Shown in pieces: positions 3,250 to 63,341 of a DNA stretch of 64,000 nucleotides; positions within the stretch are counted from its first letter, which is position 1, and each line of letters opens with the position of its first letter. The stretch comes from a virus, in the IMG/VR virus record IMGVR_UViG_3300027762_000003, positions 1 through 64,000 of that record; one strand, 5' to 3'. Under the pieces are notes generated by a model. It saw only the letters and a list, made by a program, of their open reading frames with translations, had not been told where the DNA came from and ran no database searches. Made by a program: the position numbers and the translations under genes.

Positions 3250-3331
3250 ACTGCGTTTAATAGCGGAAAAACCCACTAACAGATGGATTCATACTCTGAC
3301 GGATCAATTTTAAATCTTGCCATATGTAATT

Positions 3332-4963: not shown

Positions 4964-6292
4964 TTAACCGATTGAACTCTTAACCAGGTTCCTGAACCGG
5001 GCGAACTCTGCATCAAAGAGTAGTTTGACAACGCCGGTCGGGCCGTTCCGATGCTTGGCGATGATGACTTCAGCGATCGCCCTGTCAGTTGTTTCAGGAT
5101 TGTAATACTCATCCCGATAGAGCATGATGATCAGATCCGCCTCCTGCTCAATACCTCCACTTTCCCGAAGATCCGACATGATGGGGCGCTTGTTTGTTCG
5201 GGATTCTACGGCTCGACTTAGTTGGGATAGTGCGATGATGGGGACATTCAATTCTCTGGCTAATCCTTTTAGTTGCCGGGTAATTTTAGACAACTCCTGA
5301 ACCCTGTTATCGCTCCCACCTTCCATTAGCTGTAGGTAGTCGATTATGACCAGACCAATATCGCCCTTTTCAGCCTTTAGCTGACGTAGCTGGCTCTTCA
5401 TTTGATTAACGGTAACGTTGGGTGAATCCTCAATACAGATAGGTAATTCAGCAAGTCTAGTATGGGCGTTAATGATCTCCTCCCACTCGTTTTCCGTTAT
5501 CCGTCCCGATTTGATTCGAGTCCCTTCTATTTGGGTCTCGTTGGAAAGTAAGCGAAGCGCTAGTTGCTCCTTGCTCATCTCTAGGGAGAAGATTGCGACA
5601 ACTTGCTCCTCTGCGTAGGCTGAGACGCTACGGGCGATCGACATTGCGAAGGCGGTCTTGCCCATTGACGGACGACCAGCGAGAATAATCAAATCCCCCC
5701 TCTGGAAGCCTGCGGTCATTGCGTCAAGATCGTAGAATCCACAGGGAATTCCTGGGGATATCTGATGAGTTGCTCTAGCTTGCATCTCTTGGTAAGTGCG
5801 GGATAGAGTATCCTCTAGCCACTCAAACCCTGTACGCTTTTGCTCTTGGGCAATATCAAAGATTGCCCCTTGAGATTTTTCCAGAACCTCTGAAGCTGGC
5901 ATTGAAGTATCATAGCCGTACCCGTTAATGCGGTGGGATGCAGTGATAACCTGACGGCGGAGGTATTTATCCATGACAAGCTTGGCGTACTCATCAATAT
6001 TAACCGCGTGAACCGTTGTGTTGATGAGGTGGAGTATTTTATTTGCTCCTCCAATCTTTTCTAGATTGTGATTGTCCTCCAGCTCGGTTCTCACGGTCAT
6101 GAAATCCACTGGAATATCTTGTGCCCATAGTTTGAGCGCTGCCAGGTAAATAATTTTATGTGCTTGTACGCTGAATGATTCCGGGTCTAGGGTGTCGGCA
6201 ATGCGCCCGATCGCCTCCCTATCCATCAGCACGCCACCTAGGATTGCCTCTTCCGCTTCAAGATTGTGTGGGGGGAGTTGTTCTTTCATCAT
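4964..6292 (-). CDS. dnaB: Replicative DNA helicase DnaB
   Basis: LPPHNLEAEEAILG N-terminus, AGRPSMGKT Walker A, FSLEM, IIDYLQL, LSQLSR, SDLRESGGIEQEAD, IIAKHRNGPTG. Confidence 0.97.
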   Translation of the reverse strand: MMKEQLPPHNLEAEEAILGGVLMDREAIGRIADTLDPESFSVQAHKIIYLAALKLWAQDIPVDFMTVRTELEDNHNLEKIGGANKILHLINTTVHAVNIDEYAKLVMDKYLRRQVITASHRINGYGYDTSMPASEVLEKSQGAIFDIAQEQKRTGFEWLEDTLSRTYQEMQARATHQISPGIPCGFYDLDAMTAGFQRGDLIILAGRPSMGKTAFAMSIARSVSAYAEEQVVAIFSLEMSKEQLALRLLSNETQIEGTRIKSGRITENEWEEIINAHTRLAELPICIEDSPNVTVNQMKSQLRQLKAEKGDIGLVIIDYLQLMEGGSDNRVQELSKITRQLKGLARELNVPIIALSQLSRAVESRTNKRPIMSDLRESGGIEQEADLIIMLYRDEYYNPETTDRAIAEVIIAKHRNGPTGVVKLLFDAEFARFRNLVKSSIG

Positions 6293-6303
6293 CTCTGTTT
6301 TGT

Positions 6304-6543
6304 CTAAAAATAAGATTGTCGCTCTGATCGACACAAAGGGTGGCTTGCAAAATATAGGGAGCCAAGCGTGTCAACAATGTACTCGGTCGATTCATTTGTC
6401 CGGACTTTGAACCGGATTGGAGTGTACCAGCCTAATTGCCCCTTGAGAGAAGCGTATGTAAAACAAGCTGTCCTGCTGTGAATCTTGACCGCTTTAATTC
6501 CAGACTCGCTGGTGTATTCCTTTCCAATTTCAAATCTTTTCAT
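6304..6543 (-). CDS. Hypothetical protein
   Basis: 79-aa ORF overlapping the upstream gene in an operon. Confidence 0.5.
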   Translation of the reverse strand: MKRFEIGKEYTSESGIKAVKIHSRTACFTYASLKGQLGWYTPIRFKVRTNESTEYIVDTLGSLYFASHPLCRSERQSYF

Positions 6544-17594: not shown

Positions 17595-17855
17595 ATGGTT
17601 AAAAAAGGCGAAAAACGAGAAGTAACCTGGACTCCGAACCCCGACGGTTGTCCTTTGTTTGGCAAGAAATATAAATTCGAGCCAAGGTATGGGAAAAGGA
17701 TGGGAAAGTCGATAACCCTGGCTATGCTCACTGAGGATTATATGCGCGTAAAGGATCGGGCTAAGGAAGAGAATCGCAGTGTACAGGATTTCATCCGTGC
17801 GGCGATCGTCTACGCGCTAGAACACCCAGAAACCATTAAGGAGGAGCGCCAGTAA
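17595..17855 (+). CDS. Ribbon-helix-helix (CopG/Arc-like) regulator
   Basis: [32 protein letters not shown]. Confidence 0.7.
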
Positions 17856-19839
17856 TGTAAATTTCGGTTATATTCCCTACCTTCCTCTGCTCAATGGGGC
17901 AACCGTTAACGCCCTGGACGAATGCGGCGACGTTAGGGTATGTGCCCCAATCCCAGACAGGGAATAATGCATTAGGATCTGTGAAGTTTGTGGCTAAGTT
18001 GTCATCTCCATCGTAGGCACCGAACCTGAAATAATAGTTGGTGGTAACGCTGGCATCGGGGTTAATGACATCAACCTGCCAGAAGTGTACATCTCGAACG
18101 TCAGCTTGGCTATAAACTACATGGCCCCTAAGTTCCTCACAAGGGTTAGGTTCTGGCGTAGGTGTTGGCGTAGGCGTTGGCGTAGGTGCTGGCGTAGGTG
18201 CTGGACTTGGAGATGGACTTGGAGATGGACTTGGAGATGGGGATGGTGCTGGACTTGGAGATGGGGATGGTGCTGGACTTGGTGCAGGAGTGGGCGCTGG
18301 ACTTGGTGCAGGAGTGGGCGCTGGACTTGGTGCAGGAGTGGGCGCTGGACTTGGAGATGGGGATGGTGGAGAAGGCGCTGGAGTAGGGTAAGGTGATGGT
18401 GCGGGGGTTGGGGTGGGTGGGTCTTTCTCTTCTTCTTCCTCCTCCTCCTCTTCTTCTTCCTCCCGTTTTTCGGGGCGAAACTCTAATGCCCAACTTCCCC
18501 ATGGACTCAAAAACTCTTCCTCTCCTTCTTTGTACCCTATTTTGTAGTGAATAAAATCAACGTACCCTTCTTTTTTTTCTTCTCCTGCAATAACTGTGGG
18601 TTCGGTATAAGTAGGGTATACAACATTTTTCTTGGTGACCGTTCCTACGTTATCAAGAAAACCGCCTCTCGAATACTCTAGCTGACTTTTAGGTTTAACC
18701 TTGGCTAAATAAGTGCCTGGTGGTAGTACAACAAAATTAGTAGACAAGGGAGACGGTGCGCCCGGATTACCTATTTGTGTGTCACACTTATATTGCCCAT
18801 CTTTGTAATATTCTCTATTTTTAGTAGAGTAATATTTTGAGTCTACCTGTTCAGACCACTTGCCCCCATTTATTAGCTTGCTGTCTGACATTAACGAGAA
18901 ACCCCTTTGTGTCTTTATCCTACCATCGACTCCCGTAGGAAGGCACTCGTATCTTAATGGAAATATAGCCTCAATTGATTTCGTGGATATGTCAGCTATA
19001 GGATTACATGCAGCCACTTCTAGTCCCCTAGGTAGAAGCCTAATTTTTATTTTTACACGAGTTCCTTTTGACTGATAAGAAAAACTGTCGCTACCCAGCA
19101 CATCATACAATCTTCTATATTTAAAAACTTTGAGATCCTCATCCCATTCCACTTTTGCTCCTTTACTGGACTCATGATCGTAGCTATCTACTTTAAATCC
19201 TTCTACTGCTTTTGTCTCTGCGTCTTTAAGGATTGAAGGCGTTATCTCTACGGTTCTAGAGTCAGTGTTATCTAAGATAGTCTCTTTTTCCAAAGTAGGG
19301 GAATCATCATCATTTACATATATTGTCGATCCGCCTTTTTCATTGTTTGGTGTTGTCGATGCAAGAAATGGCCATCCCACTTTTATTTCATTCCAGGGTG
19401 GTGGAGCCTCACCCGCATCATAATTCAAGCAGGACGTGCTAAACTTCCACATATGATCGTGATCTGGCCAAAATAGCATCTCGACCGTCTCGTCTTCTGG
19501 ATCAAGGGTAACCTTGTCTTCTTCTTCCTCATCCGATCGCCGCTTCTTCCGATCCTGCTCCAGATTCACCCGTGGTTTGTACGTTATTGACTTCGCATTT
19601 CCCTCCATTCGCGGCACAACTTTCTCGCCTTTCTTGATGCCACCAGAAGCGAGGTTATGGACTTCAGTTTCTCGACCGTTCACTTTGACGATCGCCTGTC
19701 CATTTTTATAGCCTACAAAATAGGTGTCCTTGCGCTCCTCATCCGCTTTCTCCCTTTCTGCCACTTCCTCTGTGTGCTTCTGGCGATTCTGTGCGGCTAG
19801 GCGTTGAATTAAGCGCTGCTCTTCTCTGGAGAAAGTCAT
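17836..19839 (-). CDS. Probable virion/tail-associated protein with Ig-like segment, poly-Glu and Pro/Ser/Thr linker
   Basis: Last gene of the tail operon; GSDSFSY Ig-like motif; poly-Glu run then about 90 aa of PAPSPS/PTP repeats. Confidence 0.55.
18154..18465 (-). repeat. Coding low-complexity tandem repeats (24-bp PSPAPTPA units, PS/PT dipeptides, poly-Glu)
   Basis: GCTGGACTTGGTGCAGGAGTGGGC x3 and GGACTTGGAGAT repeats. Confidence 0.9.
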
Positions 19840-20117: not shown

Positions 20118-20779
20118 TAGACTATCCTCCCCCAAAGCTGATTTTGCCTGAATAAAGAAGTCGAGCCGGTCTGGATATTTGCAGCCGGTGAAAGGACTTG
20201 ATAAAGCTTGACAACCGCCTGGCAATATCGCACTCCTAAAGTACCCGCACCCCCATTGGTAATGTCAATGGTGTTGCCGGAAATATTATCTTTCAATGTG
20301 ATAGTGGTCGAGTTTGTAACCCCTACATAATAAAAAGCGTCCGCAGTCGTTCCACCCGGTGCTGTAGCTCCTGCTATTTCATGGATCATTACCCGGTCAT
20401 TTTCCGCAAAACCATGGGCAGCGCCAAAGGTGATCGTATTATTTGCGGGGGAAATTGTGGAAATAATAATCTCTGGAGTCGCGCTAACTGCTGTCGGTTG
20501 AGCCATTACAAAAGTCGAGATCACAGTAAAGTCATCCGCACCTGTAATGATGGCTTCTACAAGCGTTTCAGCCTGGAGAGTTAGCGATTTCCAAGATACT
20601 GCATTAGCGTTAAAATTAAGGAGCGGGCGCGTTCCTTGATCCGTGATTTCGTTGCTGTAATATTCTAAGTCAGTCGTGTCTATTGTCGGTGCGGCTAAAC
20701 TACAAAAGCCTAACCGCCATTGGTAGGCATTGATGTGTAGTTTAGCTAAGTCTAATATTCCTTGTTTAGTTGATGGCAT
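20117..20779 (-). CDS. Probable tail structural protein
   Basis: beta-rich; NTITFGAAHGFAENDRV...YYV...TITL motif typical of phage tail appendages. Confidence 0.6.
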   Translation of the reverse strand: MPSTKQGILDLAKLHINAYQWRLGFCSLAAPTIDTTDLEYYSNEITDQGTRPLLNFNANAVSWKSLTLQAETLVEAIITGADDFTVISTFVMAQPTAVSATPEIIISTISPANNTITFGAAHGFAENDRVMIHEIAGATAPGGTTADAFYYVGVTNSTTITLKDNISGNTIDITNGGAGTLGVRYCQAVVKLYQVLSPAANIQTGSTSLFRQNQLWGRIV

Positions 20780-30620: not shown

Positions 30621-31215
30621 CTAAGCCGTGAGAAGGTCTTTTATTTTCCGTTTCTTGCGTACTTTTTTGATGTTCTCCTTGATGATTTTCTGGAGGCTCG
30701 GATCGCACCCAACCTTGGCAATAAGTTCAGACGAATTAACATCCCGATCGCTCTCATGTCCACAACAAGCGCAATGGTAGACGGGTTTGTTGATATCCAT
30801 TTCTGGATCATAGGACAGGCACTGAGAGCAGATCCGAGATAAAGGTAAATCCGACGCAGGTTTTAATCGCGTCATCTTTTTGCCAAACTCTTGAGTTTTC
30901 TTGTCGATTAAGTCGATTTGCTGACCGATCGCCGCGTCCAAATTACTCTTATTTTGACCCGCTAAAGCCGCTCCCGTCATCCTTGGCTTTGGCTTTGACT
31001 TTCCCTACCTTCTTCTGCAAGCCATCCTCAACTGCGATACCGGATGAATAGGTGGTCAGGTAAGAAGCGATGCGGTACTGGTGCGATCGCCGTCTGCGTT
31101 TCGTCTTCTCATGGATGCGTCTTATCCTCTGCTTACACTCCTTTACTCCTTGGGAATCACCGCAATGTTTCCACCGTAGGCGTTGAATAGTCCTGGGATA
31201 AGGGCTTCGAGGATT
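30621..31215 (-). pseudogene. tnpB: 5'-truncated, frameshifted TnpB (IS200/IS605 RNA-guided nuclease) remnant
   Basis: Frame 1: RIRRIHEKTKRRRRSHQYRIASYL...IAVEDGLQ...KAKAKDDGSGF. Frame 2: AGQNKSNLDAAIGQ...SRICSQC...CACCGHESDRDVN. RuvC-I region missing. Confidence 0.85.
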
Positions 31216-31223
31216 TTAAGAGG

Positions 31224-31548
31224 ATTGAGCAGGATCTAATACTCTCTTAGGGATTGAAACCGAACACCAAATCGCATTAATCACTGCCGAAATTCAGGAT
31301 TCAATGGATCTAATACTCTCTTAGGGATTGAAACGTAATCCTGATCAACCCAAGCTAAGGCATTAGCCAGATTCAATGGATCTAATACTCTCTTAGGGAT
31401 TGAAACAAGCTTGTGGGTAGCTCGCAGATCCCCATCAAGATGATTCAATGGATCTAATACTCTCTTAGGGATTGAAACTGTTGCGTGCTAAATTAGAATC
31501 ATCAATTGAGAGATTCAATAGATCTAATACTCTCTTAGAGATTGAAAC
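31224..31548 (+). CRISPR. CRISPR mini-array: five 37-bp repeats (GATTCAATGGATCTAATACTCTCTTAGGGATTGAAAC), four spacers of 37/35/35/33 nt; cyanobacterial I-D-like
   Basis: Repeats at 31224 (5' 8 nt diverged), 31298, 31370, 31442, 31512 (2 mismatches); 3' ATTGAAAC handle; terminator follows. Confidence 0.97.
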
Positions 31549-31562
31549 GATTAAATCAACAA

Positions 31563-31598
31563 AAAAAAGCGATCGCCCCCAAAGACGACCGCTTTTTT
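31563..31598. terminator. Bidirectional terminator ending the array transcript
   Basis: AAAAAAGCGATCG...CGACCGCTTTTTT. Confidence 0.75.
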
Positions 31599-33207: not shown

Positions 33208-34287
33208 TTAATAATCCCTAATCTGAACCGGCATAATCAACACAAGACGATCACCGTCCTTCACGACCGCCGGGGTATTCGGTTGATTGACGTGGAGAGT
33301 AAACTCACCATCAGGAAGGGCGGACACAAGGTAGGGGTGATGGATAGCGATTCTGAACGGCTCATCAATAATGGATGCAACGACTTCCTCGCTCGCAGAT
33401 CCGGTATCCCCGCTACATGAGAATGACTCAACTTTTGCGAGAACGCCTTCCCCAAATTGGAGCGCGACATTCCTGGTATCACCACAAGTGATTGCTACCC
33501 GATCTAGAGCCGCTTTCAACTCACTCCCATTCATGGTGATTTCATGCTTGAATTCAGCCGGTATAAGCCTAAGTGCATCAGGATACTGCCCAGAAGGGAT
33601 GCGTGCTGCAATTCGGGTATCTCCAGTGATAAATAAAATCTGAGAATCATCAAACTTGAATTCGATATTCCCATCAGCCGCCACCTTGAGAATGGCAACC
33701 GCCGATCCGGGAATAGTAACCATGAAATCATCAGACTTCAATTCTCCAGATGAGTAGCCCAAGCGCTTTCCGTCTGTGGCGATCGCGTGGAGAATATTGT
33801 CGGCAATCGAAACATTTACCCCGGTCAAAACCTGCTTCGTTTCATCTTTGCTGGCATAGCGCGAAGCGAACCGAAGATGTTCTATGACTGACTCAGGGAG
33901 CGTGTAGGCACGGTCGCTTTCGATTTCGGGGAATTCCGGAAAATCGTCAGCAGCGATCGCCTTGTATTGAAACTTACCTTTACTCCACTTAATCAAGACA
34001 TTGAACTCATCATCAATGTCTAGGCTGATTTCCTGATTGCGGTCGATTTTGCTAACGACTTGCTTTAGGAAATCGTAGGGGATACAGAATTCTCCAGAGT
34101 CGGAACTTTCCACTGGAATCTTGGTGGCGATCGCCGTCTTCAGATCTGATCCCGTCACCAGTAAGGAGTCCTCTGTTAATACCATCTTGACGTTAAGTAG
34201 CATGGTATTGAATGGTCGGGAATCGATTGTGCGCCCAACAATATCAAGAGCGCTTTTTAGGACTGCAACATTACAACTAAATTTCAT
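33208..34287 (-). CDS. dnaN: DNA polymerase III beta sliding clamp
   Basis: GSDLK, DDFPEFP, ASKDETKQVLTGV, ATDGKRL, GQYPD, LIMPVQIR. Confidence 0.93.
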   Translation of the reverse strand: MKFSCNVAVLKSALDIVGRTIDSRPFNTMLLNVKMVLTEDSLLVTGSDLKTAIATKIPVESSDSGEFCIPYDFLKQVVSKIDRNQEISLDIDDEFNVLIKWSKGKFQYKAIAADDFPEFPEIESDRAYTLPESVIEHLRFASRYASKDETKQVLTGVNVSIADNILHAIATDGKRLGYSSGELKSDDFMVTIPGSAVAILKVAADGNIEFKFDDSQILFITGDTRIAARIPSGQYPDALRLIPAEFKHEITMNGSELKAALDRVAITCGDTRNVALQFGEGVLAKVESFSCSGDTGSASEEVVASIIDEPFRIAIHHPYLVSALPDGEFTLHVNQPNTPAVVKDGDRLVLIMPVQIRDY

Positions 34288-35909: not shown

Positions 35910-36586
35910 GGCTTGAGTACCTTCTCTAAAAGTTCTCTGGATGGAATGGGGCGATCGCCGTTCTTGTCCTTGAGCCTCAAGTCCAAATGGGGGCCGGTTC
36001 CTGCATCCCCACTTTCGGCGATCTTCTGTCCCTTCTTGGCAGCGCCTGGGGTGCAGTCATGTAAGTGGAGAAATTGAACGGTGTACGTGCCTTCTGGGCT
36101 AGGGAACTCAGCCACTAATCCGGCTAATCCGCCATAATTGGGACATTGCACCGTAGTGTCAAAAGGTGCGTAAAGTGGAGTGCCGGTTGGCGTTCCAACA
36201 TCGATCGCTGCATGATAAGAGGAGCAGCCGCTACAGGGTGAGACTCTTGGCCCATAGCCAGAGGTCACGGGATGTCCAGCAATGGAGTCACCGGGAACTA
36301 GGCTTATGTTTGAAATTAGTTGAGCGTCTTGAATAGCTCCAGAGGTAGGGATGTTTGCCGTGCTTTTAGTCTTGCCGGGTTTACCTAATTGAGATTCTAG
36401 AAAAGATTGCCAGGGTTTCATTGTTTCATCCCATGTTTTATTTAAGTTTGGAAGGATTTGGATAGCCACAGCACCACAAGTTATAATGGTTGTGATCAGG
36501 AGAACACTGGTTTTTCTATTCGAGATCGTGGGACTTTTATTGCTGCGTTGAACTTCTTGCAGGTGGGGGGTGGTGATGCCCCCCAT
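35906..36586 (-). CDS. Membrane-anchored M23 peptidase
   Basis: TSGYGPR, HAAIDVG (HxxxD), GTPLYAP, FLHL, SGDAGTGPHL; TM helix. Confidence 0.88.
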   Translation of the reverse strand: MGGITTPHLQEVQRSNKSPTISNRKTSVLLITTIITCGAVAIQILPNLNKTWDETMKPWQSFLESQLGKPGKTKSTANIPTSGAIQDAQLISNISLVPGDSIAGHPVTSGYGPRVSPCSGCSSYHAAIDVGTPTGTPLYAPFDTTVQCPNYGGLAGLVAEFPSPEGTYTVQFLHLHDCTPGAAKKGQKIAESGDAGTGPHLDLRLKDKNGDRPIPSRELLEKVLKP

Positions 36587-46072: not shown

Positions 46073-46117
46073 TTGACAACAGCTAACTATTTAGCTATCA
46101 TAGGTGTATAGACAAAA
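46073..46117 (+). promoter_or_regulatory. Family promoter
   Basis: TTGACA ACAGCTAACTATTTAGC TATCAT AGGTGTATAGACAAAA. Confidence 0.75.
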
Positions 46118-46132
46118 CGGAGAAAGAAAATC

Positions 46133-46684
46133 ATGTTAGTAGGTGAATCAGTATTTGTGTATTGGGGTGGAGATGTAATCGAGGGTGAGATCTACTACGA
46201 AGCAGTCGTAGTCGATTACATCCCCGCCTCCTATGATGTGATTAAAGATGTATGTGATTTCTGGTTTTTGGGGGTATTCCCCCCCCATACAAAAGAATTC
46301 GGCAGGGTAAGAGAAGGGATTGCAGTCTTGCAGTCTGTCTTAGGATGCGGCGACTGTTTTACAGCCCCTGCCGATAGGGTATTTCGTCTTCTTCCCCCCC
46401 AAGGTGAGTATCCTCAAAAAGTCGTTCCTTTTGAGTCTCTCTTGCGAGACTTCAAGAAAGTCGAGTTAAAAGAGACTCAGCTCATTGGTGGTGTGCGGAT
46501 TTTCCGCACCGAACACATTACGACTACGCTGCGAAATGGAATGATGAGTTCCGAGAGGGTCTTTGAATGGAAGGCTGAGATCTCCCAAGAGCGGGGGAAT
46601 GGGTTTTATCTCACGACATCCGAAGATCTCTCCTGGGAGGAGATCTATTCAAAGGCTGTTAAAAAGTTCACATTTCAAAGGTAA
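46133..46684 (+). CDS. Hypothetical protein
   Basis: First gene behind promoter 46073. Confidence 0.65.
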   Translation: MLVGESVFVYWGGDVIEGEIYYEAVVVDYIPASYDVIKDVCDFWFLGVFPPHTKEFGRVREGIAVLQSVLGCGDCFTAPADRVFRLLPPQGEYPQKVVPFESLLRDFKKVELKETQLIGGVRIFRTEHITTTLRNGMMSSERVFEWKAEISQERGNGFYLTTSEDLSWEEIYSKAVKKFTFQR

Positions 46685-46690
46685 GGATCG

Positions 46691-47596
46691 ATGCCAAAAT
46701 TTATCACCCAACCCATGTTGTCAAACTTCTACACTGATGCCGTCTGCTTCGCGCTCGAAGCGCACCGGCAACAAATCAGAAAAAACGGAACACCCTATGC
46801 CGCACATCTCTTAGCGGTATCCAGCCTTGTGCTTGAGGCTGGAGGAACGGAGAAAGAGGCGATCTCCGCACTTTTTCACGACCTGCTTGAAGATATCTGG
46901 GGTGGAAAATTCCCAGATCAATGCTTGAACCGCAAAGGGGAATTTATCATTCCTTGCAACGATCCATACGTTCCGTCTGATTGGGTCGTTGACGGCGATA
47001 TCCTCCGAATCATGAAGGCGCTGAGTGAGGATAAGTCCCTCCCCAAAGCGGATAGGAAAGCTCAGTACATCATAGGAGTGTCTGATCTCTCCAATCCTCT
47101 CCACAAGTCTATAGCACTCGTAAGTGCGGCGGATAAGCTCCATAATCTCAGGAGCTATTACCACGATTTCTGCACCTACGGCACTCTGATTGATGCTGAA
47201 GCTAAACGCTTCAACAAGCATTTAGTAGATGTTTACGCGGTAGCTGAATCTGTGCCCAGTCACTGGGTGAATGAAATGAATCGAATCTTAGAGCAACTAT
47301 TAGACGAATACAACCTCCTCGAACTTGAGGAGGTCCGCTTCGATTTGAAAACGTGCGAGAAACAAATCGATGACAGAGAGAACGAGATCCGGAGGGAGTG
47401 CGGCGATATCATTTCCCTTCTTGATAACCTAATCAGGGAGCATGAGACCCTGAATGATGACGGAACTCCCAGCCTTACAGGAGAGCAAGTGAGAGAGAGG
47501 GCTGCTCCACTCATCAAAAGGCTTGAAAGCTTTGCCCACAACTGGAAGAGACGCTTCTCTCCCGAAGAACGGTTCTTTCTAACAGGAGAAGAGTGA
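46691..47596 (+). CDS. HD-domain (p)ppGpp-hydrolase-like protein (Mesh1/SpoT-HD) with added C-terminal coiled domain
   Basis: AHRQQIRKNGTPYAAHLLAV, ALFHDLLED, VSAADKLHNLR. Confidence 0.85.
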   Translation: MPKFITQPMLSNFYTDAVCFALEAHRQQIRKNGTPYAAHLLAVSSLVLEAGGTEKEAISALFHDLLEDIWGGKFPDQCLNRKGEFIIPCNDPYVPSDWVVDGDILRIMKALSEDKSLPKADRKAQYIIGVSDLSNPLHKSIALVSAADKLHNLRSYYHDFCTYGTLIDAEAKRFNKHLVDVYAVAESVPSHWVNEMNRILEQLLDEYNLLELEEVRFDLKTCEKQIDDRENEIRRECGDIISLLDNLIREHETLNDDGTPSLTGEQVRERAAPLIKRLESFAHNWKRRFSPEERFFLTGEE

Positions 47597-47695
47597 GTGA
47601 AGGGCAAAATCTTCTTGCCTAGATCCCCTGACTAATCGCATTTCATTCACCTAGTCACTGGGTGAATGAAATGAATCGAATCTTAGAGCAACTAT
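47258..47695 (+). repeat. Exact 43-bp direct repeat (47258-47300 and 47653-47695)
   Basis: AGTCACTGGGTGAATGAAATGAATCGAATCTTAGAGCAACTAT twice. Confidence 0.95.
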
Positions 47696-47704
47696 AGAGG
47701 TAGC

Positions 47705-48718
47705 ATGAAATACATCGTAACGACAAGATTTGCAGCGATCGCCCAGGTCAAAAAGTTCGCCATGGTAGATGGAACGGTGCCGGGATGGTTGGCAGCAAGT
47801 GGTGATGACTTGCACTATGATCACCACCGGCCCGGCGGGGCGGATATCCAGATCTTGGAGATGGACACTGCTCCAATCCTGCGCGATACTGATGGTTATA
47901 CCATCGTAACGACGCAAATAGACGCGGATGCCTGCGTAGCGGCGGCATGGCTTCAGCTTAACGAAGATGAACGTCAGGTTAACCTGCGGAAATTATCGGC
48001 GATCGCCTATGACTGCGACCACCTTGCAGTTCCCAGTTACCTTGCTAACCTTTCGAGCTTCGCAGCGCAAGCAGTCGCTGCCATGAAGACCGGTTCATCA
48101 AGCCTAGTTAAGGAACTAGACTTGCCCGCCGACCGTAAGGGGTGGAGCGTCCTAGACAAGGAGGAGTACGCTTCTAAAGCGTTTGAGGCTGGCACACAAG
48201 CTATCCTTGACGCTTGCCGGGGAATTGCCCCATGGCCAGGAGAAAATGGGGAAGCGTCTGGGTACTGGCAGACCGTTGAGAAAAATGTTCAAATGATTTT
48301 GGATGGCGATCGGGTAAGCCTTTACAAAGGTTGCTTGATCTTTGATGGGAAAGGGCTTCAAGGGAAGTATATCGATCCAAGGTGCTGGTTACGGGCAGCG
48401 CAAGCAATGGGTATCCGCGACGATGCACCCTTGCAGTCTCGGACGCTTTGCCCTATAACCCTTACTCAAAGGGAGGTTTACATTGAGGATACCTTCCAGG
48501 GTTACTCTTACACCATCGGGTGTATACCGTTCCATCCCAAGCTCAACGAACTCGACTTCACCAGTGGGACATTTGATGCGCTTACTAAAGCGGAAAAATC
48601 AATTAATCCCCATGCTGATGGGTGGGGAGGACGCAAGACAGTTGGCGGATCTGGGTGGAATACTCCATCTAACCTTTCGCCGCAGGAAATTATTGATATA
48701 GCTGTTAAATGTTTTTAG
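47705..48718 (+). CDS. DHH-like phosphoesterase/nuclease
   Basis: MVDG, YDHH, QIDADA, YDCD acidic motifs and C-terminal WGGRKTVGGS. Confidence 0.6.
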   Translation: MKYIVTTRFAAIAQVKKFAMVDGTVPGWLAASGDDLHYDHHRPGGADIQILEMDTAPILRDTDGYTIVTTQIDADACVAAAWLQLNEDERQVNLRKLSAIAYDCDHLAVPSYLANLSSFAAQAVAAMKTGSSSLVKELDLPADRKGWSVLDKEEYASKAFEAGTQAILDACRGIAPWPGENGEASGYWQTVEKNVQMILDGDRVSLYKGCLIFDGKGLQGKYIDPRCWLRAAQAMGIRDDAPLQSRTLCPITLTQREVYIEDTFQGYSYTIGCIPFHPKLNELDFTSGTFDALTKAEKSINPHADGWGGRKTVGGSGWNTPSNLSPQEIIDIAVKCF

Positions 48719-48795: not shown

Positions 48796-48839
48796 TTAAC
48801 TAAAAAGCACCGGTAAAAAAACCGGTGCTTTTTAGTTAA
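48796..48839. terminator. Perfect 19-bp inverted repeat, bidirectional terminator
   Basis: TTAACTAAAAAGCACCGGT-AAAAAA-ACCGGTGCTTTTTAGTTAA. Confidence 0.85.
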
Positions 48840-48846: not shown

Positions 48847-49437
48847 GTGCAATCCAAGGAAGCAAAAACAAGGATCAAAGTGTACCGATTTTACGGAATG
48901 CCAGCAACTACGGAACCCAGGTATGGATTAATTTCGGCCATATCTTATGCAGTATTGATCTGCCGAGATCGTCGTCGAAGTCAGCTTCAAGGGACTAGCT
49001 TCTGGGAGCGATTTCACAAGTGTGTCTATGATGCTGGAATCAGATCGACTAATCTCCTGGAGTATCCAGCACTCCTATGCCAAGGGGTGAGTTCAGACTT
49101 AACCCAGGCTATCCTCAAGGGATTGTCCATCCCTCTATCCGAATGCCCTGATATTCACCTCCCCATCCTCCCCACTGGAGAAGCGGGGGACTTGTTCACC
49201 CCCAACCAGTCCCCACTACTGACAGCCTATTGGGTAGAGACCGTGGCTAAATGCTGCAAACTCCACGGATATACAGAAGAGGATATTCTGGAAATTCCTA
49301 GGGATATCACCAAGTCGCAATGGGTAGCGGTCTCTTGTCGGGTCAGAAGAGAGGAGGATAAGGAGATAGCCAAGGTTAATAGTGATCGAGCCAAGGCACT
49401 GGAAGAATTGGAAACAATTGAAGTCGAGGTAAGTTAA
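48847..49437 (+). CDS. cas11: Type IV-B small subunit (Cas11-like); start may be ATG 48898
   Basis: Helical protein immediately upstream of csf2; FWERF...STNLLEY..LLC pattern; the call is mostly positional. Confidence 0.55.
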   Translation: MQSKEAKTRIKVYRFYGMPATTEPRYGLISAISYAVLICRDRRRSQLQGTSFWERFHKCVYDAGIRSTNLLEYPALLCQGVSSDLTQAILKGLSIPLSECPDIHLPILPTGEAGDLFTPNQSPLLTAYWVETVAKCCKLHGYTEEDILEIPRDITKSQWVAVSCRVRREEDKEIAKVNSDRAKALEELETIEVEVS

Positions 49438-49439
49438 TA

Positions 49440-50603
49440 ATGGACTACGATATCCACGATCGCCGTCACGTCACTTATCACTGTGTATTCGATCTGCTCT
49501 CCCCCTTGAGCCACATTGGGGAAACTCTCGGTGGTAGCAATATCACCGTACTTAAACAAGCCAAACGCATCGCCATTGATGGGAGGGAGCGATCTCACTT
49601 CGTTTTTTCTTCCAACGCATTCAGAAACGCCATATTTAGACGCAAGGGATTTGGATTTACCCTTGACGGATTAGGCGTGCAAGTTGACCCCACCACCCAT
49701 CACACCCTTTTTGCAGGAGGGCGGATCGACTCCGGGACAGTTGCCAATATCGAGCTTGAAGACCAGTTTCGGCGCTGGCTTCCTGGCTTATCCGTACTCG
49801 GAACCGCCAAACCTAAAGACATGGGAGGGGAGAAAGGCTCCCAGATGATTAGTGGGCGGCTATCCGTAGGTGATGCTGTTCTTGTTTGTTACGAAACTAT
49901 TAATTACATTTATCAGCAAGCGCCTGGATTGATTCCCTATTCAATTTACTCATCCGTCAAGCGGATTATGGAGGCAAGGGAGGCGATCACTGCCGATATT
50001 TTTTCGCAACCGTCTCCAGAGGCGAGCGCTGCTTATGAGAAAGCACTGGAGGAGGAGCTACCCAAAATCAAGCAGCACTTGAAATCCTCTACTGCGTGCA
50101 TTTCCACTAATCGCTTCTATCGCCGCGATAGCGAGAGTGATCCTGATTTAGTGAAATACCTGAAAGCGCCTGAGCAGAAACTCATCGGCACTATCCCCGG
50201 ACTTACGGAGGAAAAAAAGAAGCCGGTAGCAGAGAAACAGGAGTCTCGATTCATGGGAGACGACCACTTGATTGCTCCAGGCAACCAACTCTATAGCCGG
50301 ATGGACATGCACGGCACGACTGTAGAGGAAGGATTTCTCTGTGCAGCGCTCCTAGAATTCGCCAAGCACCCTTATATAGGTGGTAAATCGAATCGAGGTA
50401 ATGGGCACGTAAACTTGAGGATAAATTACAAGGATCACACCATAGGGGAATCGGGAATATTGCTTTCGGTGGGAACCGACTACCAGCAATTAAGCGATCG
50501 CGCTCAAGAGAATTACCGTCGGTATTGTAATCATTTGGAGGAATTTAAGCACCATCTGGAATCCGCAGATTCTATGCCTAGACATCTTTTAGGAGGGAAA
50601 TAA
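49440..50603 (+). CDS. csf2: Type IV CRISPR backbone RAMP Csf2 (Cas7 family)
   Basis: LLSPLSHIGE, FSSNAFRN..RR, TLFAGG, LSVLG, GRLSVG, G-loop IGGKSNRGNG. Confidence 0.88.
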   Translation: MDYDIHDRRHVTYHCVFDLLSPLSHIGETLGGSNITVLKQAKRIAIDGRERSHFVFSSNAFRNAIFRRKGFGFTLDGLGVQVDPTTHHTLFAGGRIDSGTVANIELEDQFRRWLPGLSVLGTAKPKDMGGEKGSQMISGRLSVGDAVLVCYETINYIYQQAPGLIPYSIYSSVKRIMEAREAITADIFSQPSPEASAAYEKALEEELPKIKQHLKSSTACISTNRFYRRDSESDPDLVKYLKAPEQKLIGTIPGLTEEKKKPVAEKQESRFMGDDHLIAPGNQLYSRMDMHGTTVEEGFLCAALLEFAKHPYIGGKSNRGNGHVNLRINYKDHTIGESGILLSVGTDYQQLSDRAQENYRRYCNHLEEFKHHLESADSMPRHLLGGK

Positions 50604-50609
50604 ATAGAA

Positions 50610-51296
50610 ATGGAACCCATACAGATTACCGCTTGGATGAGTAGCGCGATCGCGCTGCCCGACGATTGGTCGCCCGACTTGGTGGGCATAGTGATCGCTA
50701 CCATATTTGATAAAGATCCTCGCCCTTTTCAAGAGGATTTATCCACACTTGAGGGGGTTCCCTTTGCTAAAACCGATTTAGGTTCCCCTCTACTTTGGTA
50801 TTTTGCCTGCTCGTCCCCTTGCTACGAGCTACTTAGTGAAGAGGTGACCCGTTTCCGAAAACGCTGGGACGCTGATGACGGTCGGGTTAGCTGGGGTAAG
50901 CGCAAGCCCCAATTTAACGCATCGGAGGGGAGTGAGAAAAATTATGATCTCCCTCTTCCTCTCAGGGGAATGGAGCGGATCGATTGGTTCGCCATTGGAG
51001 ATATCGGAGGCGCAGAGCGACTGCTCAAGCAAGTCACCCACCTAGGGAAAAAACGGAAAGGGGTTGTGGCGCGGTGGGTGGTGAAGGCAATCGCTCACGA
51101 CTGGCATCTGTACCGCAACAACGAGCTAATGCGTCCTATCCCTATTAGCTGCAAGCGTCCCGAATGTCTTTCATACGGCATTCGGGATTGGGGATGGCGG
51201 CCCCCAATCTGGCTACCTAAGAATAAGGAGCGGTGTGCCATGCCGGTAATCACAGTAATCAAGCCATGGATGAACAATCAAGAGCAAGCTTTTTAG
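50610..51296 (+). CDS. csf3: Type IV CRISPR RAMP Csf3 (Cas5 family)
   Basis: MEPIQITAW, WYFACS, IDWFAIGD...LLKQVTHLGKKR.G.V..W.V, LMRPIP, WRPPIW. Confidence 0.85.
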   Translation: MEPIQITAWMSSAIALPDDWSPDLVGIVIATIFDKDPRPFQEDLSTLEGVPFAKTDLGSPLLWYFACSSPCYELLSEEVTRFRKRWDADDGRVSWGKRKPQFNASEGSEKNYDLPLPLRGMERIDWFAIGDIGGAERLLKQVTHLGKKRKGVVARWVVKAIAHDWHLYRNNELMRPIPISCKRPECLSYGIRDWGWRPPIWLPKNKERCAMPVITVIKPWMNNQEQAF

Positions 51297-51958
51297 GATG
51301 GACTCAACTCCCTCGATTTAAGAAAAGAGTGGAGGAAGCCAAGCGAACCATCAATGAGGCACTGGCGATCGCTCCCTCCTATGTTGCGGTTAGTTGGGGA
51401 AAAGATAGCACCGTACTACTCCACCTGTGCCAACAAATCGATCCGAATATCAAGGCTATTTCACTAGGGAATCCGGATCGCTCTTTTTGTGGCTATGAGC
51501 AGGTAATTTCGGACTACTGCGATCGCTTCCCAACCAATCTCGAAACAATCGAAATAGAGGGAGATCACGTTCCCGACAAACTCAAGCAACTGCGACTGTG
51601 GGAGCGGTATCCTATGGCGATCGTAGGAGTACGGAAAGAGGAATCGCAATATCGCTCGATGGCTATTTCTCGTTATGGGCTGATCTACCAATTCACCAAT
51701 GGCGAAAAGGAGGGAAGTTGGAGGTGCTTTCCTTTGGGATATTGGGGATGGCAAGATGTCTGGGGTTATATAGTGCAGCACGATTTACCTTATCTGAGTG
51801 CCTACGATCGCCAATCTTGGGAAAGGGGAAGGACGACTGACCATTTGAGTAAAAGCACTAAAAAGCGATGGCAGCGTACCCGATTAGAGGGATTAGCGTC
51901 CATCGCTCCTGAATACTATCAGTATTTGCTCAAGCAATACCCAGAAATGTTCAACTAG
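51266..51958 (+). CDS. cysH: PAPS-reductase-family (CysH-like) protein of type IV-B
   Basis: VAVSWGKDSTVL PP-loop, GVRKEES..R, PLGYWGWQDVWGYI..HDLPY. Confidence 0.9.
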   Translation: MDEQSRASFLGWTQLPRFKKRVEEAKRTINEALAIAPSYVAVSWGKDSTVLLHLCQQIDPNIKAISLGNPDRSFCGYEQVISDYCDRFPTNLETIEIEGDHVPDKLKQLRLWERYPMAIVGVRKEESQYRSMAISRYGLIYQFTNGEKEGSWRCFPLGYWGWQDVWGYIVQHDLPYLSAYDRQSWERGRTTDHLSKSTKKRWQRTRLEGLASIAPEYYQYLLKQYPEMFN

Positions 51959-52283
51959 CTAGGACAAAATCGACCCCATTAGGGGTTACAATCCCATCCC
52001 CGTAGCTGACCGAAATAAACTCCAACCCTTCATGTCCAATATCGGAAAATCCATGAACTTGCCCGGATTCCTTATGGTAAAGATCCCCCTTCTTTATCTG
52101 GTGATTTTTGTCTCCATCAAACCAGATCCCACTTCCTCTTAGGATTTGGATACTACAGGGTACTTCGTGACTATGGGGAGGGACTTCACCACCCTCTTCT
52201 ATCCTCACCAGGAGGACTTGAGTATTGTAGCGATTGAAGATATTTTGAACGGTTGTTTTCTTGCACTCGTCAATCTCAAACAT
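51951..52283 (-). CDS. Cupin-domain protein
   Basis: GGEVPPHSH...ILRGSG...KKGDL....GQVHGF. Confidence 0.88.
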   Translation of the reverse strand: MFEIDECKKTTVQNIFNRYNTQVLLVRIEEGGEVPPHSHEVPCSIQILRGSGIWFDGDKNHQIKKGDLYHKESGQVHGFSDIGHEGLEFISVSYGDGIVTPNGVDFVLAS

Positions 52284-52320
52284 ACACTAATCCAATTTTG
52301 TTGACCCATCTATTTTAACC

Positions 52321-52995
52321 ATGAATTACTGTTATCTGTGCGGGAAAGACGGAGATCGCCCATTAGATCTTCCCAAAACATTCACCGCCCATAACCTAGC
52401 CAAAAACCCCACGTCTGACGTACTCTGTGATCGCTGTTACGGGACGATTGCAGGTGACGAAAAACAGCTCTACTACTGGAACGAGAACAAGAATCCGCCT
52501 GCATGGTCAAAGTTATGGGGGCGATCGCTCTCCAGGCTTTACGTGGGAGAAGAACTGAGATCACCCATCATCGAAGGAGAGCGGGAAGGTACGGCGATCG
52601 TCCACTCTTTACCCACTCGTGTAGAAATCCGGCAATGGCTCATCAATCCACCTGAGCCACCATTTACAATCGCCATCTCGGTTTCAGGGCAAAAGCATAT
52701 TTTACCTTTTGCCCAAGAAGCGCATGATAGAGAGCGGTTTCCGATTCGATTTGAGTTAACCTCTTTGGAGGTCAACCGCCAAGAATTCACTCGCCTACTC
52801 GCTAATTTTGAAATGCTTTACGACATGGGATTGACTAAAGCGGAAATCCTTAAAGGCAATTACAGTGTGTCACGAGTGGCGGCGATTCCTTATGCGGATT
52901 TCCTGAAAAGAGAGGAGGAGATCGCGCAGTACCGTGGCACTGACCTGCTAGAGTTGGCGGCGTTTGTAGCGCAAAAGGAAGGGGCGATCGAGTAG
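52321..52995 (+). CDS. csf1: Type IV CRISPR large subunit Csf1 (Cas8-like)
   Basis: CYLCG...FT......SDVLCDRC Zn finger, LINPPEPPF, SGQKHIL. Confidence 0.85.
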   Translation: MNYCYLCGKDGDRPLDLPKTFTAHNLAKNPTSDVLCDRCYGTIAGDEKQLYYWNENKNPPAWSKLWGRSLSRLYVGEELRSPIIEGEREGTAIVHSLPTRVEIRQWLINPPEPPFTIAISVSGQKHILPFAQEAHDRERFPIRFELTSLEVNRQEFTRLLANFEMLYDMGLTKAEILKGNYSVSRVAAIPYADFLKREEEIAQYRGTDLLELAAFVAQKEGAIE

Positions 52996-58783: not shown

Positions 58784-59065
58784 TTAACCGGGATATTCCC
58801 ACTCTTCAAATACATTTAGTGATTCTTCAATAAGCTTCATATCGCGAATGTCTCGGCATTTGCACCGATTAATGTTAATACCGGGTACACGATAGGCGGG
58901 GGGTTCACTCCCCTCGATCAAGGTCGAGGGAGGGATCAGCGAGGCGATCGCCTCTTGCTCAGAATCCGCTTCTATAAATAACCGGTGGGTTACGATCTCT
59001 TTTATCTCTATAATATATCTAGCCATGATTTTGTCCTCTTTGTTGTGTGTGTAGTATGTGGTCAT
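58784..59065 (-). CDS. Hypothetical protein (start may be MARYII at 59026)
   Basis: AGAGG SD before MARYII; YIIEIKE...IEADSEQEAI motif common in phage ORFs. Confidence 0.55.
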   Translation of the reverse strand: MTTYYTHNKEDKIMARYIIEIKEIVTHRLFIEADSEQEAIASLIPPSTLIEGSEPPAYRVPGININRCKCRDIRDMKLIEESLNVFEEWEYPG

Positions 59066-59140
59066 GCCCTCAAAGGAGAGGGCGGTGAAAATCAGTATAT
59101 GTGGTCATGCCCTCAAAGGAGAGGGCGGTGAAAATCAGTA
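59055..59140. repeat. Exact 43-bp tandem duplication containing a GCCCTC/GAGGGC hairpin
   Basis: TATGTGGTCATGCCCTCAAAGGAGAGGGCGGTGAAAATCAGTA x2. Confidence 0.95.
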
Positions 59141-61211: not shown

Positions 61212-62555
61212 ATGCCCTATTCACCTGAAGTTAAATGGGATTTTTACCAAGGCGATCACGAAACAGCGATCGCCTACTGGAGTGGCCCCCGCCCATCCGA
61301 AACCCAACGCAGTGCCGACACATTTAACCGGTATCTTGACCAGTCGATTAACACCTACAACATCATCAAGGAACTGGTGTCCCACTATGTGAACGCCTTA
61401 GTAGGTAAGCCATTCAACTATCCAGAAGATGAACTTCTATCTGAGTGGCTCCATACCCAAAGACGCTTATCCGCTTTCCGTCGTCGCGCCGACCCATTTA
61501 TGGAGGCGGTCACACAAGCGCTAGTCTCTGGGCGATCGTTCATCCGCTTGTACACCCCGGAAAGATTCCAGAACTCTAAAAATTCCCTACTCCTAGTTAC
61601 CCCGCACCTGTGCCATCTTCAAGACTCTAAGCCAGAGTACGATTCTGATGGATTCTTAAATCGATTCACCTATACCTATCGCGATTCAAAGGGCGGGCGA
61701 AAGCAAGAAGTATATTTCATTGATGAATCGGGATACACTCACATCCTGGCTAATGGTGAGGAGATTATTGTCGATCGCCGTGGGATGATGCCTATCTTTG
61801 AGCTATCGGTCGATCCGGTAATCTCGGATGCTGCCATCTGTGCCCAGAGAGCGCTTACCGTACTACTCACGATGTTAAATGAGTTTATCTGCTCTTCTGC
61901 CCTTCCTGAGCATATCGTCACCAATGCTCAAGTACCAGGTGAAATCATTGAAGATCCCGATCACCCTAGGGGACAACGGTTTGAGCCGAGACAAGATCTA
62001 CTTGAGTTTGGGGCTAACCAGTTAGTGATGCTCGATGGGAAACCAATCGGCGATCCAGATATGCCATCAGGGTTCACCAGTCCGTCCGTTTACTTCAAGG
62101 AACCGAGTAACCCGCAAACTTTTAGGACTGCATTAGACATCCTCATGGAGACGGTTTATAGAGAGGCGGGATTGGGGCATTTACTGACGAGTGGAGATGG
62201 TTCATTGTCCGGGGTAAGTCGTGCCACACTAAAGTCCGACTTTGAGCTTCGACTAGGGAACTATAGGGAATATATTGAGGATTTCTTTAACGCTATTCTG
62301 GAGTATGTCTTGATTGAATTGGGGCAAAAAGACCCCTATGTAGAGACTCAATTAAATCTTGATACCGGGAATATTTTACCAGAGGAACGTAATGCAATCT
62401 TAGAGGAACTCAACTCAGGAATCCGATCTCGTAGGTCTGCTATGCGGGCGCTCGGCATTGAAGACCCTGATGCAGAGGAGGAGCAAATACTACTGGAACA
62501 AAACCGGGATATGGGGGTGACCGATATCCCGGATGAAGAAGCTACCCTCGATTAA
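61212..62555 (+). CDS. Probable portal protein (SPP1-like)
   Basis: FYQGDH, NIIKELV...LVGKP, SGVSR, GIRSRRSAMRALGIEDPDAEEEQI. Confidence 0.8.
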   Translation: MPYSPEVKWDFYQGDHETAIAYWSGPRPSETQRSADTFNRYLDQSINTYNIIKELVSHYVNALVGKPFNYPEDELLSEWLHTQRRLSAFRRRADPFMEAVTQALVSGRSFIRLYTPERFQNSKNSLLLVTPHLCHLQDSKPEYDSDGFLNRFTYTYRDSKGGRKQEVYFIDESGYTHILANGEEIIVDRRGMMPIFELSVDPVISDAAICAQRALTVLLTMLNEFICSSALPEHIVTNAQVPGEIIEDPDHPRGQRFEPRQDLLEFGANQLVMLDGKPIGDPDMPSGFTSPSVYFKEPSNPQTFRTALDILMETVYREAGLGHLLTSGDGSLSGVSRATLKSDFELRLGNYREYIEDFFNAILEYVLIELGQKDPYVETQLNLDTGNILPEERNAILEELNSGIRSRRSAMRALGIEDPDAEEEQILLEQNRDMGVTDIPDEEATLD

Positions 62556-63210
62556 AGTTTAAGCGGGTTCTTTTTAGATAATCCCCAACTAGATCCTCTT
62601 TCTTGCTGGCCGGGCGATCGTTACTTGGTGCGCTTGGCAGCGATCGCTCCCGTGTTTGGGGTTCAGGTGATTCTCGCTTGAGCGCGGGGAGGAACATGCT
62701 GAGGGTCGGGTCACTGGCGATCGCCTGGGTTATTTCCTGAGATTGGTAATATGCTTTCCCTCCTGAAATCTCAATGCTGTCCACATCAATAGCCGAAATA
62801 TTAGAGAGGATATTTGCATCAAACCCAGTTAGCCTACTCACCTCTTGCAGCGTGTATTTCCGGTTGATGGTTTGCAATTCTTGTCGGCTTTCCGCTAATT
62901 CATTCTTAGCCAGTTCCAAGTCTGATTTCATCCTTTGATTAGCCAGGTGTAAATCTCGTTTCTCTTGTGAGACTTTCTTCACTACCTGGTCAATGGAAAT
63001 CGTCGGATCACTACCCTCTAATAGGCTTTGGATTTCTGATTGTGCGCTTGCCAACTCAGCTTCAGCCTTGCGCAACTTATCGTTCTTTTCCCTGATTTCA
63101 CCAATAACTTTAGTCTTGCCGGATTCTAGTTCGGAAATTCGAGAGGCGATCGCGGTTTTTATTTCTTCATCCGCAATAGCCTCTAAGGCTTGTTCGTAAT
63201 TGTAAGGCAT
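62542..63210 (-). CDS. Probable capsid scaffolding protein
   Basis: Coiled-coil N-terminus, P.LF-like motif and Pro/Ser tail; adjacent to the portal. Confidence 0.5.
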   Translation of the reverse strand: MPYNYEQALEAIADEEIKTAIASRISELESGKTKVIGEIREKNDKLRKAEAELASAQSEIQSLLEGSDPTISIDQVVKKVSQEKRDLHLANQRMKSDLELAKNELAESRQELQTINRKYTLQEVSRLTGFDANILSNISAIDVDSIEISGGKAYYQSQEITQAIASDPTLSMFLPALKRESPEPQTRERSLPSAPSNDRPASKKEDLVGDYLKRTRLNFNRG

Positions 63211-63222: not shown

Positions 63223-63341
63223 GTTTCAATCTCTGATATTGAATTATCTATTAGAAATCGCCGGTTGATCTCACCAGCAAATTGTGGCTGCCAAGACTGC
63301 ACCACCATACCCCCCGAAACCGGGGAACATCCGAGGACGTT
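63223..63341 (-). ncRNA. Putative structured RNA/leader: four hairpins followed by a solitary CRISPR-like repeat (63223-63259)
   Basis: Extended -10 TGTTATAAT (63348-63356); hairpins start at the predicted +1; ends GATTTCTAATAGATAATTCAATATCAGAGATTGAAAC. Confidence 0.5.

Follow-up and report, generated by a model that had tools for sequence, protein, structure and literature searches.

The stretch of DNA analyzed here (the window) comprises the first 64 kb (64,000 nucleotides) of an 80,027-bp IMG/VR virus record, IMGVR_UViG_3300027762_000003, which is terminally redundant and rated complete. On its plus strand lies a cassette of five genes, cas11, csf2, csf3, a cysH-like gene and csf1 (Table 1), which together constitute a genuine and intact effector of the subtype IV-B CRISPR systems. 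All five reading frames are intact and every open reading frame (ORF) between 48.8 and 53 kb was assigned. An initial annotation, made from the sequence without database searches, had proposed that the IV-B effector is complete and includes a CysH-like gene, and had suggested hidden Markov models (HMMs) as a check. All five genes were found where it had placed them, on the plus strand, and the PADLOC models Csf2_0_IV, Csf3_0_IV and Csf1_0_IV all matched. These models are derived from CRISPRCasTyper, and the matches to Csf2, Csf3 and Csf1 were full length. The curated TIGRFAM matches were weak and partial for all three proteins, Csf3 (TIGR03116, E 6.7e-7), Csf1 (TIGR03114, E 6e-11) and Csf2 (TIGR03115), and fell below the curated cut-offs, the Csf2 match with 22.5 versus 130 bits. 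When the Csf2 profile was compared with the PDB, it retrieved the Csf2 of the IV-B structure 7JHY (E 7e-7) and a IV-A Csf2 (8RC2, E 1.4e-5).

Table 1 Coordinates of the features discussed in the text. Positions are those of the window unless a relative or a host genome is named.
Feature	Position	Strand	Basis or remark
IV-B cassette	48847-52995	+	five genes
cas11, predicted small subunit	48847-49437 (likelier GTG start 48880)	+	alignment with relatives; fold; synteny
csf2, Cas7 backbone subunit	49440-50603	+	PADLOC Csf2_0_IV, E 7.8e-33, residues 11-372
csf3, Cas5	50610-51296	+	PADLOC Csf3_0_IV, E 7.2e-31, full length
cysH-like PP-loop enzyme (CasCysH)	51233-51958 (likely ATG start 51266)	+	Pfam PAPS_reduct, E 8.5e-13
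Cupin_2 gene	51951-52283	-	Pfam Cupin_2, E 1.2e-9; antisense between cysH and csf1
csf1, small Cas8-like large-subunit signature protein	52321-52995	+	PADLOC Csf1_0_IV, E 3.9e-26
Hairpin	48796-48839		perfect 19 bp, flanked by A-run and T-run; -28.9 kcal/mol
CRISPR mini-array	31224-31548	+	five repeats of 37 nt, four unique spacers of 33-37 nt
Bidirectional terminator	31563-31598		3' of the array
TnpB/Cas12f-like remnant	30624-31215	-	RuvC-II, zinc-finger TNB and RuvC-III parts only
Remnant, first part	30952-31215	-	PADLOC Cas12u2 positions 278-347 of 445, E 3.5e-22
Remnant, second part (different frame)	30624-31004	-	PADLOC Cas12u2 positions 354-441 of 445, E 5.3e-24
Repeat-like 37-mer	63223-63259	-	in the 5' leader of gene 62542-63210 (-), 13 nt before its ATG
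Upstream operon	46073-48718	+	outside the cassette; promoter TTGACA-17-TATCAT at 46073-46101
orf183 (183-residue protein)	46133-46684	+	upstream operon
HD_4 SpoT-like hydrolase domain protein	46691-47596	+	HD_4, E 1.6e-9
DHH/DHHA1-fold phosphoesterase, 337 residues	47705-48718	+	AlphaFold2 pLDDT 92
Beta clamp	33208-34287
Promoter-like motif copies	4862, 10407, 28708, 45660, 46067, 57889, 58350, 59647, 63803	both
43-nt tandem duplication	59055-59140		perfect
667-residue ORF	17836-19839	-	12-nt (24-nt) repeat run at 18125-18392
Cas12-like gene, L022	14179-16047		about 625 residues
Cas12-like gene, L024	17713-19596		about 625 residues
Cas12-like gene, L027	16330-18201		about 625 residues
Cas12-like gene, G004	75683-77512		about 625 residues
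Arrays, G004	71460-71928 and 77866-78121
Sites matched by its own spacers, G004	36438-36470; 20702-20738		33/33; 37/38
Type I-E Cas7 gene and array region, G003 (L059)	2917-4170 and 6123-6443
Type I-B locus, G334 (L105/L111)	C1: 3.18-3.20 Mb		array of about 7.5 kb

The product of the first ORF matched no HMM in four libraries, and neither sequence profiles nor Foldseek against the PDB gave a Cas11 match. The protein was aligned with 18 relatives from viral contigs, and its AlphaFold2 (AF2) model was helical with a predicted local distance difference test (pLDDT) score of 63. When 48,161 chains were searched exhaustively with VIA-align, the best match was chain 7jhy_h of a type IV-B complex (Z 7.3, root-mean-square deviation 3.8, 119 of 143 residues aligned), the second-best chain having a Z of 4.3. 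Directly upstream of csf2 is also where the gene lies in 47 of 49 related viral loci. Given the fold match and this fixed place before csf2, we accept the first ORF as a predicted Cas11, with modest scores; the initial annotation had named it mainly by position, a call now backed by fold and synteny.

The CysH-like protein matched PHROG 2302 (E 5e-20), and its best PDB matches were CysD and 3'-phosphoadenosine 5'-phosphosulfate (PAPS) reductases. The family consists of two subfamilies, in which both the PP-loop, S-x-G-K-D-S, and a G-x-R-x-x-E-x-x-x-R block were kept in 20 of 20 aligned members. A C-terminal catalytic cysteine motif of the ECGLH type was not found in the phage sequence. Because the PP-loop is kept and the reductase cysteine is gone, we infer that the protein is an ATP alpha-hydrolyzing or adenylating enzyme rather than a sulfonucleotide reductase. 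The phage sequence fits the published description of CasCysH, in which the protein is a putative ATP alpha-hydrolase and not a reductase (PMC8175902). In Csf1 four cysteines (C4, C7, C36 and C39) were invariant in the alignment of relatives, and the catalytic residues of the CysH-like protein and the zinc-binding residues of Csf1 are unchanged across relatives that have 25–50% identity. A structure prediction for Csf1, Csf3 and the CysH-like protein as a complex scored 0.00 and gave no verdict either way. Seven of the 17 aligned Csf1 relatives (L018, L019, L020, L021, L024, L027 and L053) have a C-terminal extension that ends in QLSLF, QMCLF or QLSLW and resembles a beta-clamp-binding peptide. 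No tail of this type was found on the phage Csf1 or in any frame nearby, though the phage encodes a clamp of its own.

The initial annotation had also reported the absence of dinG, cas6 and adaptation genes, and this was upheld by genome-wide searches. Two Cas6 models found no match in the whole phage genome, and the positive controls did match; tblastn with the Cas6, Cas1, Cas4, Cas3, Cas8b, Cas7b and Cas5b proteins of a putative host (see below) gave nothing in the phage genome at E ≤ 0.1. No adaptation genes were found by tblastn with Cas1 and Cas4, no search having been aimed at Cas2 alone. There is no DinG or RecD helicase and no Csf5 at the locus, and the only helicases of the genome, DnaB and a ResIII/DEAD protein, are encoded >30 kb away. 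The cassette locus contains no CRISPR array, the nearest being 17.3 kb upstream.

Subtype IV-B systems lack an array and Cas6 (PMC7038947) and are known on plasmids, prophages and some lytic phages (PMC7038947; PMC11656645), and our literature search found no paper joining type IV-B with a cyanophage. The system of the Mycobacterium sp. JS623 megaplasmid (7JHY; PMC7937560) has the same components, Csf1, Cas11, Csf2, Csf3 and a CysH-like protein, and like the phage cassette it has no nuclease, helicase, Cas6 or adaptation genes. The JS623 genes differ in residing on an actinobacterial plasmid rather than a phage, and the sequence similarity is very low. In contrast to JS623, csf1 comes at the end of the phage cassette, whose genes run cas11-csf2-csf3-cysH-(antisense cupin)-csf1, and an array lies elsewhere on the genome. 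The terminal csf1 and the antisense cupin insert are minor variants of known IV-B. The start of the cysH-like ORF overlaps the end of csf3, and the Cupin_2 gene is convergent with cysH with an overlap of 8 nt. The Cupin_2 gene, which the initial annotation had not mentioned, was present in none of the related loci, and in several relatives the cysH-csf1 junction holds other insertions.

The carrier of the cassette, an 80-kb tailed phage, is well supported as a cyanophage because it is an IMG/VR virus with direct terminal repeats (measured as 122 bp), encodes the large terminase (TerL), has a weak portal-like match and is enriched in the cyanobacterial HIP1 octamer GCGATCGC, of which its genome has 82 copies versus 1.2 expected. 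The initial annotation had also called it a cyanophage. Its 112 predicted ORFs also encode DnaB, DnaG, the beta clamp and both ribonucleotide reductase subunits. No similar GenBank phage record was found, and no Rfam family or tRNA was detected in the window. The whole stretch was present in only one public run, a freshwater sediment metagenome that is probably its source.

Relatives of the cassette were sought with Csf2 in a metagenome protein set, where 177 homologs were found at E ≤ 1e-3; the closest (P0002-P0005) were 87% and 66–67% identical, and none among the 120 listed was named a Cas protein. A single-protein scan of viral contigs found none, and the IMG/VR relatives were found by an alignment-based profile scan, which gave 49 loci (about 50 phage contigs) at 36–43% identity. 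The order cas11-csf2-csf3-cysH-csf1 is kept in most of the 49, and csf3 adjoins csf2 in nearly all. Among 185,579 species genomes the cassette was found only on two small contigs of cyanobacterial metagenome-assembled genomes (Spirulinaceae and Dolichospermum), and seven of the nine large IV-B contigs fetched were rich in HIP1. By tblastn, the phage shared only 6–13 of its 112 ORFs with each of these nine contigs, and about half of the shared genes were those of the cassette. No shared TerL was found among 24 related records, a blank that is uninformative by itself, and the tblastn counts back the low gene sharing. Because the cassette recurs while almost no other gene is shared, it is evidently a module passed horizontally among phages that are otherwise unrelated and mostly have cyanobacteria-like DNA.

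The mini-array reported by the initial annotation is real, as 100 shuffled sequences gave no match. Its repeat consensus ends in ATTGAAAC. Three of the repeats are identical, the first lacks its 5' 8 nt and the fifth has two changes. No sigma-70-like promoter was found upstream of the array. The first repeat abuts the remnant of a TnpB/Cas12f-like gene (Pfam Cas12f1-like_TNB, E 1.2e-6), of which the C-terminal third persists, split between two frames, and nothing is left of the N-terminal two thirds; no intact RuvC effector of the type V-F/U (Cas12f/TnpB-like) kind was found beside the array. The missing N-terminus of the remnant and the missing 8 nt of the first repeat look like the result of a single deletion, which would have taken any leader with it. 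Since the remnant still scores strongly, the decay of the TnpB/Cas12f-like gene is recent and the good state of the array tells little about selection on it. The spacers matched no protospacer in the phage, about 2 Mb of related phages, IMG/VR (searched with patterns that ignore every sixth base) or 401 cyanobacterial genomes.

The 401 cyanobacterial genomes were also searched with the array by BLAST; 55 matched, about 20 of them with many matches along large arrays. The closest repeat, that of genome G334, is 31/37 identical with the same 3' handle, the six differences including some in the stem, and the hairpin is 5 bp in the phage repeat versus 8 bp in that of G334. The phage repeat was absent from the 401 genomes when ≤3 mismatches over 29 nt were allowed, its exact 19-nt core was not found in genome contigs, and exact or degenerate repeat patterns gave no arrays in genome contigs and three single matches only in metagenome contigs; the true host may lie outside the genomes sampled. 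The G334 array is flanked by cas8b (E 0), cas7b (5e-132), cas5b (8e-113), cas3, cas6, cas4 and cas1, and this gene content assigns the locus to type I-B, although the best models for its Cas6 and Cas4 were of the 'd' kind. The initial annotation had called the phage array I-D-type, and this did not hold: the flank of the closest repeat, in the one genome examined, is I-B (cas8b-cas7b-cas5b). Spacers of the G334 array match sister IV-B phages (L054, 36/37; L033, 34/35 and 28/29; G016, 29/30), which ties the phage group to such hosts and makes the G334 lineage a likely host lineage of the IV-B phages.

Given this host system, the mini-array might serve the type I-B Cascade-Cas3 and adaptation machinery of the host against competing phages, unrelated to IV-B. 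Virus mini-arrays that copy host repeats have been described, for example in 'Chiyouviridae' (PMC10848311), and the phage array is like these in being short, in having no cas genes and in its host-like repeat with the 3' handle of the I-B repeat. It is unlike them in that its repeat is 31/37 identical to the nearest host repeat found, and identical to none found, in that no spacer target was found, and in the adjacent TnpB/Cas12f remnant, which suggests another origin; nor was a promoter seen. We regard this use of the array as somewhat unlikely, and it would in any case be compatible with the explanation that we prefer, an IV-B cassette that acts independently of the array.

The solitary repeat that the initial annotation had noted at 63223 fared less well than the array. 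The last 12 nt of this 37-mer are those of the degenerate fifth array repeat, but the remainder is only about 60% alike after gapping and the element folds no better than shuffled sequences (z -0.87). With ≤3 mismatches its 24-nt 3' part was absent from the 401 cyanobacterial genomes. Its status as a CRISPR repeat is doubtful.

Whether arrays feed IV-B complexes can be judged from the relatives. The initial annotation had proposed a survey of IV-B phages for distant arrays, and arrays were indeed found in five of ten large cassette contigs, but each lies near another effector or, in the phage itself, against the remnant of one. All arrays of the relatives are within a few kb of a Cas12-like, TnpB or type I-E Cas7 gene. 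A Cas12-like gene encoding about 625 residues is near the arrays of L021, L022, L024, L027 and G004 (array b); in L030 and L031 this gene lies at the contig edge. The protein matches PADLOC Cas12u2 (about 1e-56) over its C-terminal half only, and the arrays alongside have up to 28 repeats. A TnpB-like gene is near the array of G018, and the array of G003 is about 2 kb from a type I-E Cas7 gene. The contigs G002, G017 and G020, which are large and include complete or nearly complete genomes, gave no array even when two repeats sufficed for a match, whereas G016 has one 31-nt repeat pair only, beside a TnpB gene, and G019 a tandem-like repeat only. Because the cassette is kept in the array-less G002, G017 and G020, it probably does not depend on a phage-borne array.

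The phages with the 625-residue gene (L021, L022, L024, L027, L030, L031 and G004) are sister cyanophages that resemble the phage in cassette order, with 37–53% protein identity, and in having 37-nt repeats that end in TTGAAAC; the G000 repeat is 24/37 identical to that of L024. Many repeats of the sister phages begin with CTTGCAA. In the sister phages the Cas12-like effector is intact, arrays reach 28 repeats and Csf1 often has the QLSLF tail, whereas the phage has a remnant, five repeats and no tail. One of them, G004 (L063-L067; complete, 95 kb), has two arrays, and two of its spacers match its own genome (Table 1), which suggests either that a non-cutting effector regulates the phage itself or that the assembly is at fault. 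Another contig, G003 (L059; 57% GC), has an integrase and an array besides the IV-B cassette and the type I-E Cas7 gene; it may come from a provirus with some host DNA attached or from a phage with I-E genes of its own.

The initial annotation had taken the mini-array and the 63223 element as candidate sources of guides for the IV-B complex. In such a model the mini-array would be transcribed and cut by the Cas6 of the host, and the resulting CRISPR RNAs (crRNAs) would load the IV-B complex, which would silence or mark DNA of rivals or of the host but leave it uncut. In favor of the model, the phage lacks its own Cas6, the locus of the 31/37-identical host repeat encodes one, and the array is intact save for its two end repeats. 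There is also a precedent in an archaeal virus in which IV-B occurs together with a two-repeat mini-array (PMC10848311). This atypical IV-B system, of the Fuxiviridae (a Bathyarchaeia virus), is like the phage in its CysH-like protein, its small array and the lack of a protospacer found. However, its mini-array lies inside the cas locus, whereas that of the phage lies 17 kb from the cassette, up against a dead TnpB/Cas12f-like gene, and the host of the Fuxiviridae virus is archaeal rather than cyanobacterial (PMC10848311). The two self-matching spacers of G004 are what would be expected of a non-cutting effector, but the Cas12-like gene is also there. Against the model stand the retention of the cassette in several array-less relatives and the position of the arrays of IV-B phages within a few kb of other effectors. 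In the phage itself the array, distant from the cassette and set against a dead gene, has no promoter or protospacer that we could find, and its repeat hairpin is weaker than that of the host. The proposal is not supported, and we consider it unlikely.

A variant is that the array outlived its Cas12f/TnpB-like effector since IV-B uses crRNAs that the host Cas6 cuts with the 8-nt ATTGAAAC handle, their source being either the array of the phage or the I-B arrays of the host. In that case the cyanophage IV-B complex would silence its targets by RNA guidance without a nuclease, or would trap crRNAs, and the PP-loop enzyme would act on whatever target is bound. We judge this variant quite unlikely.

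Our preferred explanation, to which we give a probability of about 0.6, is that the phage carries an intact and mobile IV-B cassette that acts independently of any array, the array being the remnant of a separate module. Judging from the solved complex of Mycobacterium sp. JS623 (7JHY), the proteins would assemble into a nuclease-free filament bound to RNA, with a Csf2 backbone, a minor filament of Cas11, and Csf3 and Csf1 at one end. That complex is reported to bind heterogeneous RNA and to be without nuclease (PMC7937560; PMC8175902). The CysH-like partner, with an active ATP-binding PP-loop, would hydrolyze ATP at the alpha position or adenylate, and the ribonucleoprotein would bind or modify nucleic acid during infection without cutting it. 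Its role would probably be in counter-defence or in competition between elements. The mini-array would be what recent decay has left of a separate CRISPR module of the TnpB/Cas12f type, a kind that is still intact in the sister phages, and its repeat would be of the host type I-B kind.

Several points weigh against this explanation. The frequency of arrays in the large cassette contigs (5/10) is far above expectation for phages generally, and some functional coupling is conceivable. With three identical repeats and unique spacers the array could still function, and given the recent decay of its neighbor, a dead gene is no proof that the array is unused. The Cas11 model is middling, and its Z of 7.3 is <8, a value that helical proteins can reach by chance. 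No promoter of the cassette was found, and a strong hairpin (z -10.1 versus 200 shuffles), which looks like a bidirectional terminator between an upstream HD/DHH operon and the cassette, lies immediately before cas11. The antisense Cupin_2 gene would interfere with transcription of csf1. The missing promoter, the hairpin and the splitting of the operon by the antisense cupin gene would also be expected if the cassette were a decaying passenger of no current function. That is highly improbable, as the five reading frames are intact, the catalytic and zinc-binding residues have stayed invariant despite the low identity of the relatives, and about 50 phage contigs still have all five genes.

Upstream of the hairpin, the operon, whose promoter follows the phage consensus, encodes orf183, the HD_4 protein and a 337-residue protein for which no sequence family match was found. 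Foldseek placed the latter closest to a PAP phosphatase (8A8K, 3.4e-5), PggH, GdpP and NrnA; its DxxxDHH, DAD and DH motifs are invariant, and it had 279 homologs at E ≤ 1e-5, those with a named source being all cyanobacterial. The gene had been considered as a hidden Cas6, which its DHH/DHHA1 phosphoesterase fold ruled out. The HD_4 and DHH proteins may be nucleotide-messenger hydrolases directed against host defence. Such neighbors bear on the possibility that IV-B is an anti-CRISPR sponge, an idea discussed in PMC7038947, in which the complex would capture crRNAs processed by the host Cas6, or pre-crRNA, of the host I-B or type III systems and starve the host effectors. The location of the cassette behind two candidate messenger-degrading counter-defence genes, although an association only, and the G334 I-B spacers against sister IV-B phages, which indicate CRISPR pressure on these phages, are consistent with a sponge. 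The authors of PMC7038947, however, judged so complex an anti-CRISPR unlikely, the sponge leaves the invariant PP-loop enzyme without a role, and the RNA in the solved complex was heterogeneous rather than crRNA (PMC8175902). We hold the sponge to be about as unlikely as the guide model.

In CRISPR classification, what IV-B does is the chief open question, and the window narrows the options for phage-borne IV-B without answering it. That the cassette behaves as a self-contained mobile module, present with or without an array, and that co-resident arrays are explained by other effectors argue against simple models in which an array gives the guides. The window points experiments at the invariant PP-loop enzyme and at the RNA bound by the complex. 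The cyanobacterial type I-B locus, with its near-matching repeat and its spacers against sister phages, provides a concrete host system for cross-talk.

Several minor features of the phage genome were also observed. A conserved promoter-like motif of about 57 nt (CTTGACAATAG followed by a TATAAT-like element) precedes many operons on both strands and is probably the early or middle promoter consensus of the phage itself. Elsewhere a 43-nt unit is perfectly duplicated in tandem. The product of a 667-residue ORF, in which a long run of short repeats gives a repetitive Gly/Pro/Ser-rich segment, is possibly a fibre-like protein.

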